Source: Acinetobacter wanghuae
GTDB lineage: Bacteria > Pseudomonadota > Gammaproteobacteria > Pseudomonadales > Moraxellaceae
DNA length: 32,000 nt
Direction of reading: 5' to 3'
NCBI RefSeq assembly: GCF_009557235.1
Contig: NZ_CP045650.1
Location: 1,020,001 to 1,052,000 of the forward strand
Shown here: positions 20,769 to 31,126 of the stretch, piece after piece
Numbering within the stretch: the stretch's first letter is position 1
Layout of the letters: every line of letters begins with the position of its first letter
Position numbers and translations under genes: made by a program
Notes under the pieces: model-generated
Databases searched by the model: none
The model's input: the letters and a program-made list of their open reading frames with translations, nothing else
What the model was told of the DNA's origin: nothing

Positions 20769-20860
20769 ACGTATAAGCAACGCAGTATGAATTGTTCATC
20801 GAGTTTAGATTTGTTAATTTGAACGCATTAAATGCATATATATTTTATTTTGGGGACATC

Positions 20861-22924
20861 ATGACGAAGATCGTCGTTTATAGTAAAGATCATCTAATAC
20901 CATTACAAAATACAGAGAATAATCAGATCCTTTTAAATCAAAATACTGTCGTTCTGATGCATTTTCCTAAAGAAAATATTGCGTCGATTGAACGCTCAGG
21001 CACAACCGCAATTGTCCATCTCAAAAATGGTGAAACAGTTGTATTAGAAAACTTTTTCAATCTTGATGGCACGCCTGCGAACGTTATTGTTCTAACCAAT
21101 CCGCAGGGTTATTACGACGTTATGCTTCTAGATGAGCAAGGACAGCTCATTCAATATAATCCGATCAATAATATTCATCAGTTATCGGGAACTCCAAATT
21201 GGATCAGTGCGACACAAGTCAATGCGATACAGGAGAGTGCTGAAAGTACAGCACCGTGGTATGCCTCAAAACTTGTTAAAACGGGATTGGCGATTCTTGG
21301 AGCTGAAGCTATTTACTTAGCGGCTTTCAAGAAAGATGACGATCACGAAAATAAAGCCACGGATACGATGCCACCTGCAACACCTAAAGGCACTTTAGAT
21401 GCAGCGGGAAAAGTAATCACTGGGCAGGCTGAAGCCAATGTAAAAATTTTTGTGGTAGATGCAAATAATAAAGTGCTCGCGGAAACCAAAGCTGATGCTT
21501 CAGGTAACTATACCTTGAGCTTAAGCCGTGACGTGGTTAATAATGAAAAAGTGTATGTTTATGCACAAGATGCAGCTGGAAATTCATCATCCTTCCTGAC
21601 ATTAACAGGTACGAAAGATACCTTGGCACCGGAATTAGAATGGGCACAATTTTCTACAGATGGTGCATTTGTGACTGGAAAAACGGAAGCGAAAGCCAAA
21701 GTTTATGTGTATGCAGAAGATGGGGTAACCGTACTTGCAGGTCCAATCTCGGCTGCAAATGATGGAACATTTACCCTTAACTTAACGCCCGTATTAGCCG
21801 AAAACAGTAAAGCCAAAGTCGTGGCTGTGGATGAAGCAGGCAATAAATCACCGGCTTATGAGGTGATTGTTGGGCATGATACCATTCCACCTGCTCAACC
21901 TGCTTTAGAAGTGAAAAGCGATGGAACTTCAATTAAAGGTACGGGTGAAGTTGGAACCACTGTTCAAATTTTAAATGCGAGCAAGGATGTCATCGCTGAG
22001 AAAGTCATTGGTCCGGATGGAACCTTTACGATTTCATTCAGCCCAGCAATCACAGATGCAGCAAAATATACATTAAGTTTAAAAGATGATGCAGGAAATG
22101 AATCCAAACCTATTGATCTGAAAGTGGGATTAGATACCTTAGCCCCTGACAAAGTGCAAGCAACGCTAAATATCGATGGTAATAAACTGACAGGGACTGC
22201 CGAAGCCAATAGTTCAATTGAAGTTCGCAGTGGAAACACTGTCATTGGAACTGGCAAAGCAGATGCAATAGGTCATTTTGAAATCACACTAACGACAGCG
22301 TTGTTGAATAATAACAAAGCAACAGTCATTGCTTATGATGCTGCAAAAAATGCCTCGCCGTCTTTAGATATTATTGGAACAAAAGATACGATTGCACCCA
22401 ATAAAGTCGTCCTTAAAACAGTGACTGATGATGTAGGTACAAGTAAAGGCACCATTGCTGCCAATTCGAACACGGATGATACACAGCCTAAGTTTGAAGG
22501 CACAGGTGAAGCCGGTGCCACGGTGACGATTTATAATCATGGTATTCCGATTGGAACGACCGTTGTTTTGGCAAATTTAACGTGGTCATTTACTCCTGAC
22601 AAAGCCCTGAGTTTGGGTGAGCAAAGTATCAGTTTTACGCAGGTGGATGCGGCTAAAAATACCAGTGATATGAGTGATAGTTTTAAATTTACTGTTGTCA
22701 CTCAGGTAAATGCATCTGCAAGCGAAGAGAATATAGATGTAGAAAGTCTGTTGTCTGAAGATAATGGCAATACTGAAATTGATGATCTGCTGATCCAATT
22801 TGATACAAATTCAGCAACTACAAATTCGAATAGTGCTGCACCATCCATGTTGGCTGCAAACTTTGCTTCTATCAATCCGCAAGTAGAAGATCACTTGCAT
22901 AATGATGTTTGGACTATAGGTTAA
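20861..22924 (+). CDS. Compact Bap-like surface protein: BapA-prefix-like N-terminus, hydrophobic segment and five Ig-like repeats
   Basis: ATG at 20861 follows GGGGAC. The N-terminus (KIVVYSKD...VVLMHFPKENIASIERSGTTAIVHLKNGETVVLENFF) matches the BapA prefix-like pattern. A hydrophobic stretch LVKTGLAILGAEAIYLAAF follows, then DTxAP-delimited ~85-aa repeats. Confidence 0.8.
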   Translation: MTKIVVYSKDHLIPLQNTENNQILLNQNTVVLMHFPKENIASIERSGTTAIVHLKNGETVVLENFFNLDGTPANVIVLTNPQGYYDVMLLDEQGQLIQYNPINNIHQLSGTPNWISATQVNAIQESAESTAPWYASKLVKTGLAILGAEAIYLAAFKKDDDHENKATDTMPPATPKGTLDAAGKVITGQAEANVKIFVVDANNKVLAETKADASGNYTLSLSRDVVNNEKVYVYAQDAAGNSSSFLTLTGTKDTLAPELEWAQFSTDGAFVTGKTEAKAKVYVYAEDGVTVLAGPISAANDGTFTLNLTPVLAENSKAKVVAVDEAGNKSPAYEVIVGHDTIPPAQPALEVKSDGTSIKGTGEVGTTVQILNASKDVIAEKVIGPDGTFTISFSPAITDAAKYTLSLKDDAGNESKPIDLKVGLDTLAPDKVQATLNIDGNKLTGTAEANSSIEVRSGNTVIGTGKADAIGHFEITLTTALLNNNKATVIAYDAAKNASPSLDIIGTKDTIAPNKVVLKTVTDDVGTSKGTIAANSNTDDTQPKFEGTGEAGATVTIYNHGIPIGTTVVLANLTWSFTPDKALSLGEQSISFTQVDAAKNTSDMSDSFKFTVVTQVNASASEENIDVESLLSEDNGNTEIDDLLIQFDTNSATTNSNSAAPSMLAANFASINPQVEDHLHNDVWTIG
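21362..22699 (+). repeat. Five tandem Ig-like domain repeats inside the Bap-like gene (protein-level periodicity of 84-87 aa)
   Basis: Repeat units begin at DTMPP (21362), DTLAP (21617), DTIPP (21878), DTLAP (22133) and DTIAP (22385). Shared G(T/K)xExxxxVxV...DxxGN core. The fifth unit is a divergent type (VTDDVG...). Confidence 0.7.
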
Positions 22925-23229: not shown

Positions 23230-23640
23230 ATGCATAATTTGCGGATGAAATACATCGATTTGAAGAAGCTTTCTGAAACACAGTTTAAGCGATATACAGG
23301 CATCAGTTTTTCAACCTTTGATTTAATGGTTGAACAACTGAAAATACATGTCCCGACTAAAGGTAGACCACCTAAGTTAAGTGTAGAAGATCAGGTTTTA
23401 CTCTGTCTGAGCTATTGGCGTGAATACCGAACTTTATTCCATGTCGCAACAAGTTATGGCGTGTCAGAGCCTACTGCTTCAAGAATCGTCCGCCATGTAG
23501 AGGATTGCCTAATCAAATCCAATCTGTTTAATTTACCGAAGAATTTGCCTGAAGGCGAAGGTATTGACTGGAATGTGGTGATCGTAGATGCCACAGAAAT
23601 TCCAATACAAAGACCTAAAAAAACAGAAGAAAAGCTATAG
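23230..23640 (+). CDS. IS transposase, N-terminal part (HTH region plus first catalytic Asp)
   Basis: The block GRPPKLSVEDQVLLCLSYWREYRTLFHVATSYGVSEPTASRIV is typical of IS5/Harbinger-like transposase HTH regions. VVIVDATEIPIQRP carries the first D. The frame ends just after an A7 run. Confidence 0.8.
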   Translation: MHNLRMKYIDLKKLSETQFKRYTGISFSTFDLMVEQLKIHVPTKGRPPKLSVEDQVLLCLSYWREYRTLFHVATSYGVSEPTASRIVRHVEDCLIKSNLFNLPKNLPEGEGIDWNVVIVDATEIPIQRPKKTEEKL

Positions 23641-24058
23641 TGGCAAGAAGAAGGCACATACTTTTAAAGTTCAAGCCATTATCCATTATAGAACTCGGCA
23701 AGTTCTGAGTTTATGCACGAGTCATGGTGCTGTACATGATTTCGAGCTATTCAAACGCAATTTAAATCAGGTTCCTAAAGGGTCTTTTATCCTTGCAGAT
23801 AAAGGCTATCAAGGGATTTACGCAGTGTATCCAAATAGTCTCTTGCCATTAAAAGCAAAAAAGCGCTGCAAACTAGATCTCGAGCTAAAAGTTTACAATC
23901 AAGAAATCAATAAAAGAAGAATTGGGATTGAGCATGTATTTGGCAGTTTGAAGACCTTCAAAATACTTGCCGAGCGATATCGTAATCGAGGCAAAAGACT
24001 AGGCTTAAGATTCAATTTAATTGCTGGAGTCTATAACATGGAACTGAGTAAAAAATGA
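23588..24058 (+). CDS. IS transposase, C-terminal DDE part in the +1 frame relative to 23230..23640
   Basis: YSGKKKAHTFK, ILADKGYQG (second D) and RIGIEHVFGSLKTFKIL (E) blocks. The frame joins the upstream ORF at A7 (23617..23623). Confidence 0.8.
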   Translation: MPQKFQYKDLKKQKKSYSGKKKAHTFKVQAIIHYRTRQVLSLCTSHGAVHDFELFKRNLNQVPKGSFILADKGYQGIYAVYPNSLLPLKAKKRCKLDLELKVYNQEINKRRIGIEHVFGSLKTFKILAERYRNRGKRLGLRFNLIAGVYNMELSKK

Positions 24059-24140
24059 CTTATGAAAGAACTCTTTTATATGTTTAGTTGTAATAGGCTT
24101 TGTCTTTTTAGTTCTTGGTCCAATAGTTATACCAAGAATT

Positions 24141-24524
24141 ATGAGTTTGAACGGACGTGACATTCAAGATGAGGCATTTATTTGGTACAGTTTTGGACCT
24201 GGACTAATCATAATGATTGTGGCTTTTTATATACAATCACAACAGACAGTTAAAGTTTCATATGGCTGTGGTATTGTTCAGAACTACAAGTTAAATATAA
24301 ATTCTAAAAACAAATTTGAAAGGGTTATCATTAAATTTGAAGATTCTTCTTATTATCGACACTTAAGGTTTGAAGACCATCTGTTACGTGAAGAATCAGG
24401 CGATTATGTTTGTTTCGAATTTTACGATAAGTTTAAAAATTCCTCTTTGAAAGAATCCGTCGTTTTAAAATGGATTGAGCCTACTGAAATGCAAAATATT
24501 AAGCGCATTAATCAGATAAAATAA
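24141..24524 (+). CDS. Hypothetical membrane protein with its 5' end separated by the IS (residual ORF; reconstructed start at 23150)
   Basis: The frame is open from 24066 and encodes a hydrophobic helix (FICLVVIGFVFLVLGPIVIP) with no start codon. ATG-TTA-TTT at 23150..23158 on the other side of the IS joins in frame. Confidence 0.6.
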   Translation: MSLNGRDIQDEAFIWYSFGPGLIIMIVAFYIQSQQTVKVSYGCGIVQNYKLNINSKNKFERVIIKFEDSSYYRHLRFEDHLLREESGDYVCFEFYDKFKNSSLKESVVLKWIEPTEMQNIKRINQIK

Positions 24525-24551
24525 AGCATATTTCATTGTAAGAGCAGAAAC

Positions 24552-24791
24552 ATGGCTATCGCTGAAGCATTTATTGCAAAACAAAATATTTATTTTGATT
24601 ATGATTTTGAAGAACTGAATTTAGCGGATGATTTTCCTGAGGAACTCTTGGTTTCACTGCGTGGCATGATGTTCCGCCATGAAGTGAAATATCCTGAAGC
24701 GACTTATTTTGTATATTTCAGTAATATTTTGACAGGTGATGAACTGGAAAAAATGAAAGCGGATTTTGCGGAATATTGTCCTGCGGAATAA
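24552..24791 (+). CDS. Hypothetical small acidic protein (79 aa)
   Basis: ORF 28 nt downstream of the previous gene on the same strand, followed by palindromic units and a terminator. I recognise no family. Confidence 0.5.
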   Translation: MAIAEAFIAKQNIYFDYDFEELNLADDFPEELLVSLRGMMFRHEVKYPEATYFVYFSNILTGDELEKMKADFAEYCPAE

Positions 24792-24805
24792 TCCTGCTGG
24801 AGTTT

Positions 24806-24876
24806 CCCTCTCCTTATAGGAGAGGGTTAGGGAGAGGTAAATACCTTCATCCCAACCTTCTCCCAAAGGGAGAAGG
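24806..24876. repeat. REP-like compound palindromic element
   Basis: Hairpin 1 is ccctctcct-tat-aggagaggg (24806..24826). Hairpin 2 is ccttctccc-aaa-gggagaagg (24856..24876). A related gggagagg copy lies between them. Confidence 0.55.
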
Positions 24877-24889
24877 AGTAATAATTGAT

Positions 24890-24919
24890 AAAAAAGCGAA
24901 GCCTGAGCTTCGCTTTTTT
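24890..24919. terminator. Bidirectional rho-independent terminator between the small ORFs (+) and purB (-)
   Basis: gcgaagc-ctga-gcttcgc flanked by A6 and T6 runs. Confidence 0.8.
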
Positions 24920-26389: not shown

Positions 26390-27121
26390 TTAAATCACCT
26401 GAAACTGTAAACGCGCGAGGTTTTGAATATCTTGAAGTAACTTTCGTTTACCAAACACCATGCCCCAAGAGCTCCCACCGAGCTGACGCCAAAGGTGTGC
26501 CATCTGCAACCCTGTAAATAGAGAAGCACGTATACGATTGGTATGTCCGGCATCTTTAAAGGCTTGTGCATTGCCACGTACCATAATCCGCGGATTAATC
26601 GAACCCGCAGTGTCGACATAGGTTTGGGCAAGGTTGGCAATAATGCTTGGATGAAGGTAGTTGTTATCGAAAAATGACAGTTGTCTTAAAATCTTTTGCT
26701 GAGATTGTTCAATAATTTCGACAAACTTCGGGTTGCTATAGACCTTCTTTTCTAATTGAAGAAGTGCCATGGCATAAGTCATAGGAAGTTTGGTCGATGA
26801 TAATTTTGGCAAGCGAGATTTTGGAGAAGGATCAAAAGGTTGGGTGATACTACTTTCTAAGGTTTTTAAACCCAGTGAAACATCCGAGAGTTGATGAAAG
26901 AAATCGAGCGTCTGAACATTTAAATTGTCCTTTGGACGAATGTTCAGACTGGCTTTAATCAACTGCTCGAAATAGAAGTTACCACTTTCGCCAATGCTTT
27001 GCTGACCTGTGAGCGCGGTCATATGGGTCAGTTGTGTTGCTTGAAAAACACCTGCTAACGCCAAAGCGCGGTTTTGACGAGTATTCAACGCTGTAGACTG
27101 TTGAAACGGTAACTCCGTCAT
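26390..27121 (-). CDS. hflD: High-frequency-of-lysogenization protein HflD homologue
   Basis: Position between purB and mnmA as in E. coli. [10 protein letters not shown] and AHLWRQLGG blocks. A start at 27121 avoids the 58-nt overlap with mnmA that the longer ORF implies. Confidence 0.85.
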
Positions 27122-27135
27122 GCCGAAATCATCCT

Positions 27136-28281
27136 TTAATAAAATCTGGAATAGGCGCATTGGTATGATGAAATCACACCACCCCCTAAACAATATTCAC
27201 CTGAATAGAACACCACACTTTGACCTGGAGTCACTGCGCGCTGTGGTTCATCGAACTCTACGCGTACACCGTTTGGTGCTTCAGGATCTTTAAAAATCGT
27301 ACATGCTTGATCGGTTTGACGGTAGCGTGTTTTAGCGGTGCAACGGAAACCAGCTTCAGGAATCTCTTGTTCACCTGCAACCCAATCAATCGCTTCACTC
27401 CACAACGTGGTACTTTGCATGAGTGGATGTTCATGACCTTGACCGACCACTAAACGATTACCTTCGATGTCTTTATGTAGGACAAACCATGCACCTTCAG
27501 CGACGCCTTTCATGCCGCCAATGCCAATGCCGCCACGTTGACCGAGCGTATAGTACATTAAGCCGTGATGATCACCAACCTCTTTACCTGTATCGAGTAC
27601 GATTTTTCCGGGTTGCGCTGGAAGATATTGTTTTAAAAAGTCATTAAAGCGACGTTCACCAATAAAACAGATACCTGTTGAGTCTTTTTTCTTGGCAGTC
27701 GCAAGACCCAATTCTTCAGCAATTTTACGCACTTCTGGCTTTTCAATTTCACCGACAGGGAACAATGTTTTGTTAATTTCACGACCATGCACGGCATGTA
27801 AGAAATAAGTTTGATCTTTATTTTGATCGACACCACGTAGTAGTGGTGCATATTCTTCACCACGCGAATTGGTTGCAGTTTCACCGCGACGGCAATAATG
27901 ACCTGTCGCAATAAAGTCTGCGCCTAAATTAATCGCGTGATCTAAGAAGGCACGGAATTTGATTTCTTTATTACATAAAATATCAGGGTTTGGGGTACGA
28001 CCTGCAGCATATTCTGCTAAGAAATGCTCGAATACACGATCCCAATATTCCATCGCGAAGTTGGCAGTATGGAGTTTAATCCCGATTTTGTCGCAAACGG
28101 CTTGTGCATCGGCAAGGTCATCCATTGCCGTACAGTATTCTGTGCCGTCATCTTCTTCCCAGTTTTTCATGAAAAGACCTTCAACTTGGTAACCTTGTTG
28201 AAGTAAAAGTGCAGCAGATACAGATGAATCTACACCACCAGACATACCGACGATGACACGTTGTTGCATAGGATTAGGCAT
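27136..28281 (-). CDS. mnmA: tRNA 2-thiouridine(34) synthase MnmA
   Basis: PP-loop [13 protein letters not shown], the CNKEIKF motif and catalytic Cys regions. An alternative ATG at 28269 lies 4 codons downstream. Confidence 0.95.
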
Positions 28282-28759
28282 CCAAATTTGAAATTAAGGG
28301 AGAATTTTGGTGCTCGTAAATGAGCGATAAAGGATATTTTTGACCTGAAAGCGCATCTTGCACCGCTTTAATCACCAATGGGCTACGTGCACGTGCAGAT
28401 TCAATCAGTTCATCTAACGTCATCCATACTGCACCGACAATGCCTGTATCAAGCTCGGCATGTGGATCATGTGCAATGGATGTTGCTAAAAAGCAGAAAC
28501 GGTAATAAGTACGGTCGGGGAACATGGGTGGGGTATACGTATACATCCCCAATAAGTTCGTCACTTCAACCGTATGACCTGTTTCTTCCATGGTTTCGCG
28601 AATGGCTGCTTCAATGATGGTTTCACCTGCCTCAACATGACCTGCTGGTTGATTAAACACAGTATGGGTCACACCTTCTGTATGTTCTTCGACAAACAGG
28701 AATTTTCCATCTTTTTCAACGACGGTTGCGACAGTGACGTGAGCAGTCCAAGCGGTCAT
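28274..28759 (-). CDS. nudJ: NUDIX hydrolase NudJ-like
   Basis: Nudix box [22 protein letters not shown]. The N-terminus [14 protein letters not shown] aligns with NudJ as I remember it. The purB-hflD-mnmA-nudJ order is conserved. The stop overlaps the long mnmA start (ATGCCTAA). Confidence 0.85.
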
Positions 28760-29041
28760 AGAACAGCACCAAGGATAAGGATGCACTATTGTATAAAATT
28801 TTGGGGTGTGTGGCTATGATGGGAGGGGATTTCTTTGGAGAAGATGATTTTTGAACTTGGGGGACTAAATTTTGTGAGACAATGGATGAATAGTCATCGT
28901 GAAATAGGACGAATTATTTAAAAAAGGCTCAATTGATAAGTCTGGGCGTTCCATACTGACATAATATGATGATAGATATTCTACGCTAACTATTTATAAT
29001 CAATAATATTTTATAATATATTTATTACATAGAGACTGAAA

Positions 29042-30514
29042 ATGCAGCAAATTAATGTACCTAAAATATTTATTTCATATAGTTGGTCAAGCCCTGAACA
29101 TGAAGAGTGGGTATTGGAATTAGCTGAAAATTTAATAAAAGATGGTATTGATATCGCACTAGATAAATGGGAATTAAGAGAAGGGGATGACCCGATAATT
29201 TTCATGGAAAGTATGGTGAACGATCCCACTATAACTAAGATCATAATGATTATTGACAGAAAATATACGGATCGTGCGAATCAACGCCATGGTGGTGTCG
29301 GAACAGAATCTACAATTTTATCGCAAGAGCTTTATAGTAAAAGAGATAAGAACAAGATTGTTGCTGTTATAGCTGAACCTAATGCTCCAAAACCTACATT
29401 TTATGCAGGTAGATTGCATGTTGATTTATCAAATACCGAACGATATGCAGAGGAATATGAGAAGTTAGTTCGTTGGGCTTATGATAAGTATAAATATGAG
29501 AAACCAAAGCTTCTTGGTAGTGCTCCGAGTTTTATTGTTGCTGAAGAAGAACAAATTGCACTATTCACAAACACTCAATATCGAATGGCAATAGATGCTT
29601 TAGAAAAGGGTAAAAGCAATGCTAGCAGTTTAGTGAAACAATATTTGGATAAGCTTCTTTTAGAGCTGCCAAAATTTTCTATATTAGAAAAAGATAATGA
29701 TCTTAATGAATTATTTAAGCAAAAACTTGAACATTTTCAGCCTCACTTGTATGAGTTTCAAAAGGTTGTTGATGCTGTTTGTACTCACTCAAATGATCCT
29801 AAGATTTTCAAACATTTCCGTAGCTTTTTAGAAAGACTTTTAAGCTTATTATGTACAGTTCCAAATGAAAAAGGGCGCTTAACAATAGATTTAGAATTAT
29901 TCAGTTTTTTTAACTATGAATTTTTTCTTTCGTTAGTGACTATTTTAATTAAAAATGAAGAATTTAATGAACTTAAAGAGATTCTGGATGAACTCTATAT
30001 GTTGCCTGAAAATTTCTATCAGCGGCATTTATTAGAAAAAAAATATATGACCTTTACTGTGTTTCTCCCAAGAGAATATGGTTTTATCGAAAATATTCTA
30101 AAACCAAAATACTATTCACCATTAGGTGACCTAATAAAAGATTATTCTGATGATCAAGTTATTACTTTTGAAGAAATTTGTGAAGCAGATGCGTTCTTGT
30201 TTATAAAATCTTTAACATATGCCTTGCAAATTGATGACTATTATAGAAAAAGATGGTGGCCTCATGTGTCTTTTTATATCGTAAGAGACCGTTACCATGC
30301 TTTAAAAGTTTTTGTTAAGTCAGAAAGGCCCACTTATTTTGATGAAATAAAGAAAGTATTAAATGTTAAAGATTTACAGTTCATTATAGATATACTAAAT
30401 ATAAATCGAGAGAATCCATATAATCAAAACTTATACCTCCCTAAATGGCCAGAAGCTTTTGCCACATTTGATTTAAAGACTCTATGTAATTTAGATAAAT
30501 TGCATAATTCATAG
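29042..30514 (+). CDS. SEFIR/TIR-like domain protein with an uncharacterised ~330-aa C-terminal region (candidate single-gene defence protein)
   Basis: The N-terminus KIFISYSWSSPEHEEWVLELAENLIKDGIDIALDKWELREGDDPIIFMES...GGVGTES matches the bacterial SEFIR/TIR_2 pattern. The gene is strongly AT-rich and sits alone between core genes. Confidence 0.75.
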   Translation: MQQINVPKIFISYSWSSPEHEEWVLELAENLIKDGIDIALDKWELREGDDPIIFMESMVNDPTITKIIMIIDRKYTDRANQRHGGVGTESTILSQELYSKRDKNKIVAVIAEPNAPKPTFYAGRLHVDLSNTERYAEEYEKLVRWAYDKYKYEKPKLLGSAPSFIVAEEEQIALFTNTQYRMAIDALEKGKSNASSLVKQYLDKLLLELPKFSILEKDNDLNELFKQKLEHFQPHLYEFQKVVDAVCTHSNDPKIFKHFRSFLERLLSLLCTVPNEKGRLTIDLELFSFFNYEFFLSLVTILIKNEEFNELKEILDELYMLPENFYQRHLLEKKYMTFTVFLPREYGFIENILKPKYYSPLGDLIKDYSDDQVITFEEICEADAFLFIKSLTYALQIDDYYRKRWWPHVSFYIVRDRYHALKVFVKSERPTYFDEIKKVLNVKDLQFIIDILNINRENPYNQNLYLPKWPEAFATFDLKTLCNLDKLHNS

Positions 30515-30525
30515 ACAATATTAAA

Positions 30526-30550
30526 GAATCCTCACTAGGAGTGGGGATTC
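30526..30550. terminator. Hairpin between the convergent SEFIR-like gene and yrdA
   Basis: gaatcctcac-tagga-gtggggattc gives a 10-bp stem with one wobble. The U runs are weak on both strands. Confidence 0.4.
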
Positions 30551-30595
30551 AAATTATATTTATTTAGCATAAAATCTCTGAGATTAAGAAGTTTT

Positions 30596-31126
30596 TTATT
30601 TATAATTCCCCGACACCTTCACATAATTCTGTGCCGAATACGGTAAAAACGCCTTTTCTTTCTCAGTAATAGGGCGTACTTTTTTAACAGGGCTGCCCAT
30701 ATATAAATAACCACTTTCCAAAACTTTGTTTGGCGGAACAAGCGAACCTGCGCCAATCATCACATCATCTTCAACAATCACATCATCCAAAATAATCGTG
30801 CCAATACCGACCAAAACCCGATTACCAATGGTACAACCATGTAATTTAACATGATGACCAATCGTGACATCTTCACCAATAATTAAAGGCGAACCTTCAG
30901 GTTTATCGGCTTTTTTATGACTCACATGCAACATCGAGTGGTCTTGCACATTCGAGTTTTTACCAATGTGGATATGATTGACATCACCACGAATCACGGC
31001 AAACGGCCAAACCGAGACATTTTCGCCTAAGACAACATCACCAATGACGACTGACATTGGGTCAACATAACAAGAATCATCAATAGTTGGTGCAGTGTCT
31101 AAATAAGGACGAATGTTTTGGCTCAT
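30596..31126 (-). CDS. yrdA: Gamma-class carbonic anhydrase-like hexapeptide-repeat protein (YrdA-like)
   Basis: Left-handed beta-helix repeats. The blocks IRGDVNHIHIGKNSNVQDHSMLHV and GHHVKLHGCTIGNRVLVG closely resemble E. coli YrdA as I remember it. Confidence 0.9.
   Translation of the reverse strand: MSQNIRPYLDTAPTIDDSCYVDPMSVVIGDVVLGENVSVWPFAVIRGDVNHIHIGKNSNVQDHSMLHVSHKKADKPEGSPLIIGEDVTIGHHVKLHGCTIGNRVLVGIGTIILDDVIVEDDVMIGAGSLVPPNKVLESGYLYMGSPVKKVRPITEKEKAFLPYSAQNYVKVSGNYK

Follow-up and report, generated by a model that had tools for sequence, protein, structure and literature searches.

A bSEFIR-family gene in an AT-rich islet at a variable junction of the Acinetobacter wanghuae chromosome

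The subject of this study is one gene in a 32,000-nucleotide stretch of the Acinetobacter wanghuae genome (NCBI RefSeq assembly GCF_009557235.1, contig NZ_CP045650.1, positions 1,020,001 to 1,052,000 of the forward strand). This whole stretch is called the window, and all positions below are counted from its first nucleotide. A first-pass annotation, made from the letters of the sequence, had marked a stand-alone SEFIR/TIR-like gene near the right end of the window as a candidate single-gene, NAD+-depleting defence system against phages, a proposal that now finds support in homology and in the literature. The open reading frame (ORF) with the quoted motifs is indeed present and, as had been claimed, it lacks a co-oriented partner: the flanking genes on both sides are minus-strand genes. 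By its sequence, the gene is an intact copy of bSEFIR, a single-gene anti-phage family that has already been described. The encoded protein has the same sequence (100% identity) as A. wanghuae GFH30_04800, labelled 'hypothetical protein' at NCBI and 'SEFIR domain-containing protein' in UniRef; other Acinetobacter genomes label proteins of this type 'TIR domain-containing'. The parts of the gene are the following.

29042-30514, plus strand: bSEFIR coding sequence, with an ATG start, 490 amino acids plus stop, and the motifs quoted in the first-pass annotation
29042-29491, plus strand: SEFIR (TIR-fold) effector domain, residues 1-150, assigned from Pfam, PDB entry 5y8e, Foldseek and AlphaFold
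29162-29164, plus strand: codon of Asp41 in the LDKW motif, invariant in 58 homologs and present in the Bacillus cereus SEFIR
29306-29308, plus strand: codon of Glu89 in the GGVGTES motif, invariant in 58 of 58 homologs and conserved in the B. cereus SEFIR
29498-29551, plus strand: flexible, disordered inter-domain linker, residues 153-170, with a predicted local distance difference test score (pLDDT) below 50
29564-30511, plus strand: all-helical C-terminal domain, residues 175-490, with pLDDT mostly above 90

The SEFIR head and membership of the bSEFIR family

The window protein was compared with the hidden Markov model (HMM) library of PADLOC. It matched the bSEFIR model PDLC03957 with an E value of 9.1e-95 and 316.9 bits, in one alignment of residues 3-472 with profile positions 37-369 of 412, which takes in the SEFIR head together with the greater part of the C-terminal region. 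No NCBIfam model matched the protein. Full-length orthologs with 72-91% identity were found in A. kookii, A. oleivorans, A. nosocomialis, A. baumannii, A. pittii, and A. soli, and homologs of the same length with 30-35% identity in Aliamphritea, Stenotrophomonas, Janthinobacterium, Gilliamella, and Tissierellales. In a tblastn search against plasmids, B. cereus-group proteins aligned over residues 6-464 with 27-30% identity. These alignments include the C-terminal domain, so that the Firmicutes, to which the experimentally validated bSEFIR protein belongs, have this domain as well.

The first-pass annotation had further proposed that the fusion of a SEFIR-like head to an unrecognisable C-terminal region was potentially undescribed. 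This proposal failed, since the PADLOC profile spans both halves, the B. cereus-group proteins align along both, the same architecture occurs in hundreds of proteins of 470-500 amino acids, and Acinetobacter genomes are already included in Table S6 of Millman et al. (2022). In that table, Bacillus sp. NIO-1130 is marked 'Verified', and the word 'Acinetobacter' occurs 69 times at about 3 per row, which corresponds to roughly 23 genomes, including A. tjernbergiae. The bSEFIR identity is thus already known; the domain and the likely function had been rightly recognised, and the claimed novelty is absent.

To be assigned to the family by Millman et al., a protein must have an N-terminal SEFIR hit that is stronger than its TIR hit, as judged by HHsearch against the PDB and Pfam; hmmscan was used here for Pfam. 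In the window protein the domain is N-terminal (residues 7-148), and SEFIR stands ahead of TIR in the PDB comparison and with Foldseek, but in Pfam the two are level (SEFIR 53.7 bits, TIR_2 53.8 bits). The protein shares with bSEFIR the family profile, the two-domain architecture and size, the conserved aspartate (by motif position), and the single-gene organisation. Like the bSEFIR proteins of Millman et al. (2022), it carries a SEFIR domain at the N-terminus and a helical C-terminal domain of about 300 amino acids in a chain of about 480-490 amino acids. It differs from them in that its host is a Gammaproteobacterium, its gene lies at a chromosomal housekeeping junction and not in a defence island, and its identity to the Firmicute proteins is approximately 27-30%.

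The SEFIR/TIR-like nature of the N-terminal domain was borne out by hmmscan, in which two Pfam families exceeded their cut-offs: TIR_2 (E = 3.4e-14, 53.8 bits with a cut-off of 28, residues 9-143, whole profile covered) and SEFIR (E = 3.7e-14, 53.7 bits with a cut-off of 23, residues 7-100). At the sequence level, residues 7-148 matched the crystal structure of the B. cereus SEFIR domain, 5y8e, with E = 2.5e-24 and 37% identity. In a profile search of the PDB, the same structure was matched at 9.6e-49, and the best TIR domain at about 1e-3. An AlphaFold2 model was built from a 58-sequence alignment, with a mean pLDDT of 83.6, and its residues 1-150 form an alpha/beta domain. When the PDB was searched with Foldseek, the B. 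cereus SEFIR was the top match, with target-normalised template modelling (TM) scores of 0.78-0.83, followed by TIR domains including NAD+ hydrolases (NADases), namely SPARTA, TIR-STING, SARM1, and AbTir, and then by the SEFIR domains of IL-17RB and Act1. The B. cereus structures 5y8e and 5y8f (Yang et al., 2018) have the FISYSW, LD+W, and GGVGTE motifs in common with the window protein and differ in that the solved construct is the isolated N-terminal domain without the C-terminal domain.

Conservation was assessed in 58 homologs with 29-83% identity. Twenty residues are invariant among them, and all 20 are kept in the window protein. Glu89 lies about 17 residues past strand beta-C. In TIR NADases, the catalytic glutamate is found roughly at this place, and Glu89 may be the catalytic glutamate here, a candidate picked from its position and conservation. 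The SEFIR protein of Bacillus sp. NIO-1130 protects Bacillus subtilis against phage phi29, and the substitution D40A abolishes this defence (Millman et al., 2022), an effect that was interpreted as disrupted SEFIR-SEFIR contacts. Asp41 of the window protein probably corresponds to Bacillus D40, as judged by motif position and without a sequence alignment.

The helical C-terminal domain and its other heads

The helical C-terminal domain is presumed to be the sensor or regulatory module of the bSEFIR family. When residues 170-490 alone were used as query in a word-indexed search, only SEFIR-headed proteins were retrieved. Among 1.84 billion cluster representatives, scanned exhaustively with HMMER, 445 have the C-terminal domain at E <= 1e-3, and most of the full-length matches listed have 470-500 amino acids, with the domain starting near residue 170-185. 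According to local HMMs, both halves are carried by 229 of 271 collected relatives (median length 481 amino acids), and a SEFIR head without the C-terminal domain was seen in 0 of these 271 proteins. Conserved residues of the domain include D383, W405, P407, and F424. Sequence-profile searches of the PDB matched nothing besides SEFIR and TIR, leaving the C-terminal domain unmatched. The viral structure library BFVD likewise held no match to this domain; its only hits were TIR and deoxyribosyltransferase structures, on the N-terminal domain.

Approximately 40 proteins of about 300-350 amino acids contain the C-terminal domain only. They were rejected as evidence for stand-alone sensors, since they may be fragments: P0135 starts inside the end of a SEFIR domain (LxRWxYDKP), and P0128 starts near the linker.

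In two full-length relatives, the C-terminal domain is preceded by a different head. P0145 carries a CAP12/Pycsar-effector TIR domain (PF10137) and P0198 a DUF4062 domain (PF13271) in front of the bSEFIR C-terminal domain. When the two were aligned with the family profile by hhalign, the C-terminal domains alone aligned, with E = 8.5e-51 for P0145 and 8.9e-31 for P0198, and the heads gave no alignment with SEFIR. In the 351-residue protein P0263, a bSEFIR C-terminal domain possibly stands behind a ribbon-helix-helix domain. A sensor or regulatory domain that is coupled to an effector would be expected to show just this pattern, a constant C-terminal module behind NADase heads that can be exchanged. 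We therefore suggest, tentatively, that the C-terminal domain could be an exchangeable phage-sensor module that drives at least three NADase heads of the TIR superfamily (SEFIR, CAP12/Pycsar TIR, and DUF4062/NIR), and maybe also the ribbon-helix-helix head; this is possible rather than likely. In the literature searched, no description of such head swapping of the bSEFIR C-terminal domain was found.

DUF4062 is a TIR-like NADase domain, and in the single-protein system Swarozyc it is activated when a C-terminal auxiliary domain binds the phage portal (two 2026 preprints). Swarozyc is comparable to the window protein as a single-protein system which joins a TIR-like NADase head to an auxiliary sensor at the C-terminus and which causes abortive infection by depleting NAD+. 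The head family is different, however, and, compared by description, the auxiliary domain of KpSwz is a helix-turn-helix/winged-helix domain, whereas that of the window protein is all-helical. P0198 has a DUF4062 head together with a homologous C-terminal domain, yet it is not shown to be a Swarozyc orthologue. No DUF4062 hit was obtained for the window protein with Pfam. As for Thoeris, no effector gene is adjacent, and no Thoeris model of PADLOC was matched. Without a partner gene or a DUF4062 domain, the window gene is a member of neither system.

Other single-protein and TIR-fold defence systems can be set beside it. The TIR NADase proteins (SPARTA TIR-APAZ, AbTir, TIR-STING, and SARM1) share the alpha/beta fold, with a Foldseek probability of 1.0. 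They differ in that sequence similarity is marginal (profile E about 1e-3) and in their sensor domains. The conversion of NAD+ into ADP-ribose (ADPR) and nicotinamide has been attributed to both SEFIR and TIR NADases, activation depends on oligomerisation in both, and SEFIR has been treated as an outgroup to the TIRs within the STIR clan. DSR1 and DSR2 are also single proteins in which an N-terminal NADase is activated by C-terminal recognition of a phage protein and which are countered by NARP1, but their SIR2 effector fold is unrelated, the proteins are far larger, and the sensor domains are unrelated.

The AT-rich islet and the junction

The gene is the only one within an AT-rich insert between two minus-strand genes. 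The local features are the following.

28951-30595, no strand assigned: AT-rich insert of about 1.65 kb with bSEFIR as the sole gene inside; the boundaries are approximate and were taken from 'empty' A. lwoffii junctions
28973-29000, plus strand: promoter-like site TAGATA-16 nt-TATAAT upstream of the bSEFIR gene, agreeing with the consensus at 10 of 12 positions
30526-30550, plus strand: terminator-like hairpin (stem 11 bp, loop 3 nt) in the space where the bSEFIR and hexapeptide genes converge
28274-28759, minus strand: NUDIX hydrolase gene, the left neighbour, with an 8-nt overlap with mnmA
30596-31126, minus strand: hexapeptide-repeat gene of the gamma-carbonic-anhydrase family, the right neighbour

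The bSEFIR gene has a G+C content of 0.310 (0.349 in the N-terminal domain and 0.288 in the C-terminal domain) and a third-position G+C content (GC3) of 0.228, whereas the five neighbouring genes have a G+C content of 0.39-0.45 (0.44 in mnmA) and a GC3 of 0.27-0.38. In 300-nt segments, the G+C content was 0.26-0.37 across the gene, compared to 0.40-0.48 in the flanks. The contrast in composition noted in the first-pass annotation is therefore real; its figure of 20-30% was slightly too low for a gene of about 31% G+C. The window resembles 'empty' A. lwoffii junctions from the start of the NUDIX gene up to about 28950, and again from the hexapeptide stop at 30596 onwards. The region 28951-30595 has a G+C content of 0.302, compared to 0.399 for the whole window. 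Presence and absence at this junction, together with this composition, support the earlier view of a horizontally acquired, AT-rich islet. The islet flanks were searched for direct or inverted repeats, target-site duplications, tRNA genes, an integrase, and non-coding RNAs, and none convincing was found.

The hairpin which the first-pass annotation had assigned to the gene was confirmed 3' of the stop codon. It folds with -15.7 kcal/mol (z = -5.3), a stability that none of 200 shuffled sequences reached; the U-tract that follows it is weak. The TAGATA/TATAAT site may be regarded as a candidate promoter on weak evidence.

We then surveyed the junction between the NUDIX and hexapeptide genes in 80 loci of other Acinetobacter species, which were retrieved through the NUDIX gene. 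A SEFIR homolog at this junction was found in 0 of the 80 loci, so that the gene is variable at this place and not universally conserved. The distance between the NUDIX and hexapeptide genes ranged from 207-280 bp at the 'empty' sites L081, L077, L032, and L041 up to more than 4.8 kb, and the cargo comprised 82 distinct protein clusters. Only a few clusters are defence-related: Hachiman HamA/HamB, a type II C5-methylase, mad2/mad3-like proteins, and AriA-like ATPases. We also considered whether the junction is a dedicated defence island, and this was rejected, as few of the 82 clusters match defence models. The junction is a very variable general accessory-gene hotspot in Acinetobacter. One locus, from Acinetobacter sp. 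SFB (L037:2771-5886), holds a complete Hachiman system at the same junction in an insert of 27% G+C, with HamA at E = 3e-133 and HamB at E = 1e-222. In many A. lwoffii assemblies, the sequence stops a few hundred bp or less from the NUDIX start, which suggests that repeats or insertion sequence (IS) elements are present there.

Outside this junction, the A. oleivorans and A. baumannii orthologs are lone AT-rich genes in unrelated neighbourhoods, and their DNA similarity to the window ends within about 10-50 nt of the coding sequence. A full-length bSEFIR copy, 82% identical, is encoded on the A. nosocomialis plasmid p6411-66.409kb (L084, 19506-20978). This plasmid is conjugative (MOBP/MPF_T); its bSEFIR gene has a small recombinase-family gene and a Sel1-repeat gene as neighbours, and a resistance-nodulation-division (RND) efflux operon is present on it too. 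Homologs of bSEFIR were also found in Clostridium and Klebsiella prophages. A conjugative plasmid and prophages are likely vehicles for the spread of bSEFIR.

The wider neighbours of the gene are NUDIX, mnmA, hflD, and purB on one side, and the hexapeptide protein and a D-Ala-D-Ala carboxypeptidase on the other. The products of purB, hflD, and mnmA passed the NCBIfam equivalog cut-offs, and the NUDIX and hexapeptide proteins both stayed below theirs. The first-pass annotation had named the two neighbours 'nudJ' and 'yrdA'; a NUDIX hydrolase and a gamma-carbonic-anhydrase-like protein are what they encode, and the two gene names are unconfirmed labels. The NUDIX hydrolase was considered as a functional partner of the NADase, e.g. 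as an ADPR hydrolase, and rejected in this role because all 80 species without SEFIR at the junction have it too, as a core gene.

Other features of the window lie to the left of the NUDIX gene. An IS element consists of two overlapping ORFs.

23230-23640: ORF matching HTH_Tnp_4
23588-24058: ORF matching DDE_Tnp_1/DDE_Tnp_4

This element at 23230-24058 is probably a frameshifted or split transposase. Directly upstream of it, a BapA-like Ig-repeat ORF (20792-22924, 710 amino acids) may be truncated by the IS. A second AT-rich stretch at 24000-24900, with a G+C content of 0.29-0.33, lies between the IS and purB and may be a small foreign insert; its 127-residue ORF at 24141-24524 had no Pfam or NCBIfam match. 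The mechanically called hflD ORF (26390-27193) has a TTG start and a 58-nt overlap with mnmA. Since hflD in the public record is shorter (243 amino acids), the true start is probably downstream.

Probable function and its alternatives

According to later work from the laboratory that validated the Bacillus protein, the N-terminal domain of SEFIR is responsible for NAD+ depletion, and the defence is lost in the presence of NARP1. NARP1 is a phage pathway that rebuilds NAD+ and needs bulk ADPR and nicotinamide, and SEFIR has since been counted in the literature as one of the domains which cleave NAD+ into these two products. In the literature searched, no paper that names a SEFIR trigger or a catalytic mutant was found. 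In the mechanism that we propose, the helical C-terminal domain of the window protein would keep the protein inactive until a cue of phage infection is detected, and activation would let the N-terminal SEFIR domains, which have a TIR fold, self-associate. NAD+ would then be hydrolysed, and its loss would starve the infected cell and abort phage replication, both steps being taken from the Bacillus homolog. The gene would have entered the junction by horizontal transfer as a bare promoter-gene-terminator unit, into a place where other genomes carry other accessory cargo. On the whole of the analysis, we consider it likely that the window gene is a horizontally acquired, NAD+-depleting anti-phage gene of the bSEFIR family; its activity in A. 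wanghuae is inferred.

Several observations weigh against this view. The Pfam scores for SEFIR and TIR_2 are tied (53.7 vs 53.8 bits), and identity to the Firmicute branch of the family is approximately 27-30%. Membership therefore rests on the PADLOC profile and on the B. cereus-group homologs. In the model, the GGVGTES loop (residues 83-91) has a pLDDT below 50; Glu56 is likewise invariant in the 58 homologs and is an alternative catalytic candidate. For the C-terminal domain, Foldseek against the PDB returned only helical-repeat noise (E > 0.1), with no solved relative. The surroundings of the gene are housekeeping genes without a defence island, and the remaining cargo of the junction is mostly miscellaneous (AT3-SGNH acyltransferases, regulators, GNATs, hydrolases, transporters, and IS transposases). 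Promoter-like sites in the region numbered 14, compared to a shuffle expectation of 11.1 +/- 3.3, and are thus not above chance. No experiments on the window protein or on any Acinetobacter homolog were found.

Some of these observations raise the question whether the gene is a hitchhiker, silent or in decay, or serves a purpose outside defence (plasmid or islet addiction, for example), and gives no protection against phages. The housekeeping surroundings, the mostly non-defence cargo of the hotspot, and the chance-level promoter signal all fit with this, and so do truncated Acinetobacter copies, namely P0028 (352 amino acids), P0029 (342 amino acids), and a 47% fragment on an A. pittii plasmid. 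In the window, however, the ORF is full-length, keeps all 20 invariant residues, aligns end to end with 490-residue orthologs at 72-91% identity, and has retained a strong terminator hairpin. Moreover, defence genes are commonly solo islets, and Hachiman occupies the same junction in another species. We therefore regard a hitchhiker as unlikely.

The head might instead be non-enzymatic, a protein-protein interaction adaptor that recruits or scaffolds host factors. The eukaryotic SEFIR domains of IL-17R and Act1, which are among the fold matches, are adaptors; a general interaction role was proposed first for the bacterial SEFIR (Yang et al., 2018, as cited by Millman et al., 2022); and the D40A effect was interpreted as a loss of SEFIR-SEFIR contacts. 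TIR NADases also need self-association, however, so that D40A fits an enzyme too, and the later reports of NAD+ depletion by the N-terminal domain, with a defence abolished by an NAD+-rebuilding phage pathway, argue against an adaptor. So do an islet without a partner gene and the NADase-type domains that serve as alternative heads of the C-terminal domain, and an adaptor role seems very improbable. A further alternative follows from the TIR-like fold of SEFIR. Thoeris and plant TIR-fold domains generate ADPR-derived signals, and the SEFIR head could in the same way, as the TIR protein ThsB of Thoeris does, make a nucleotide second messenger that activates an effector encoded elsewhere. Yet the gene travels alone; it stands in unrelated surroundings from one species to the next and is also plasmid-borne. 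In a heterologous host, one gene is enough for the Bacillus homolog to work, and SEFIR is neutralised by NARP1, which needs bulk ADPR and nicotinamide. We give hardly any credence to a second-messenger role, and a NAD+-depleting bSEFIR gene remains our preferred reading.

For annotation, the gain is useful but routine: a 'hypothetical' protein of A. wanghuae is a bSEFIR-type gene that PADLOC and DefenseFinder would call. As Acinetobacter is a target of phage therapy, knowledge of NAD+-depleting defences on strains and on conjugative plasmids helps to predict phage host range, and the same knowledge helps to predict the value of phages which carry NARP-type counter-defences. Of some wider interest are the strong variation of the NUDIX/hexapeptide junction within the genus and the bSEFIR C-terminal domain, for which its sharing with other NADase heads is evidence of a sensor role. 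The interest that remains lies in the trigger and the fold of this domain and in its occurrence behind other NADase heads. If the module is indeed exchangeable, and if the C-terminal domain directly recognises a conserved phage structural protein, in the way that the auxiliary domain of Swarozyc recognises the portal, the Acinetobacter clade would be a Gram-negative model in which to search for the SEFIR trigger.

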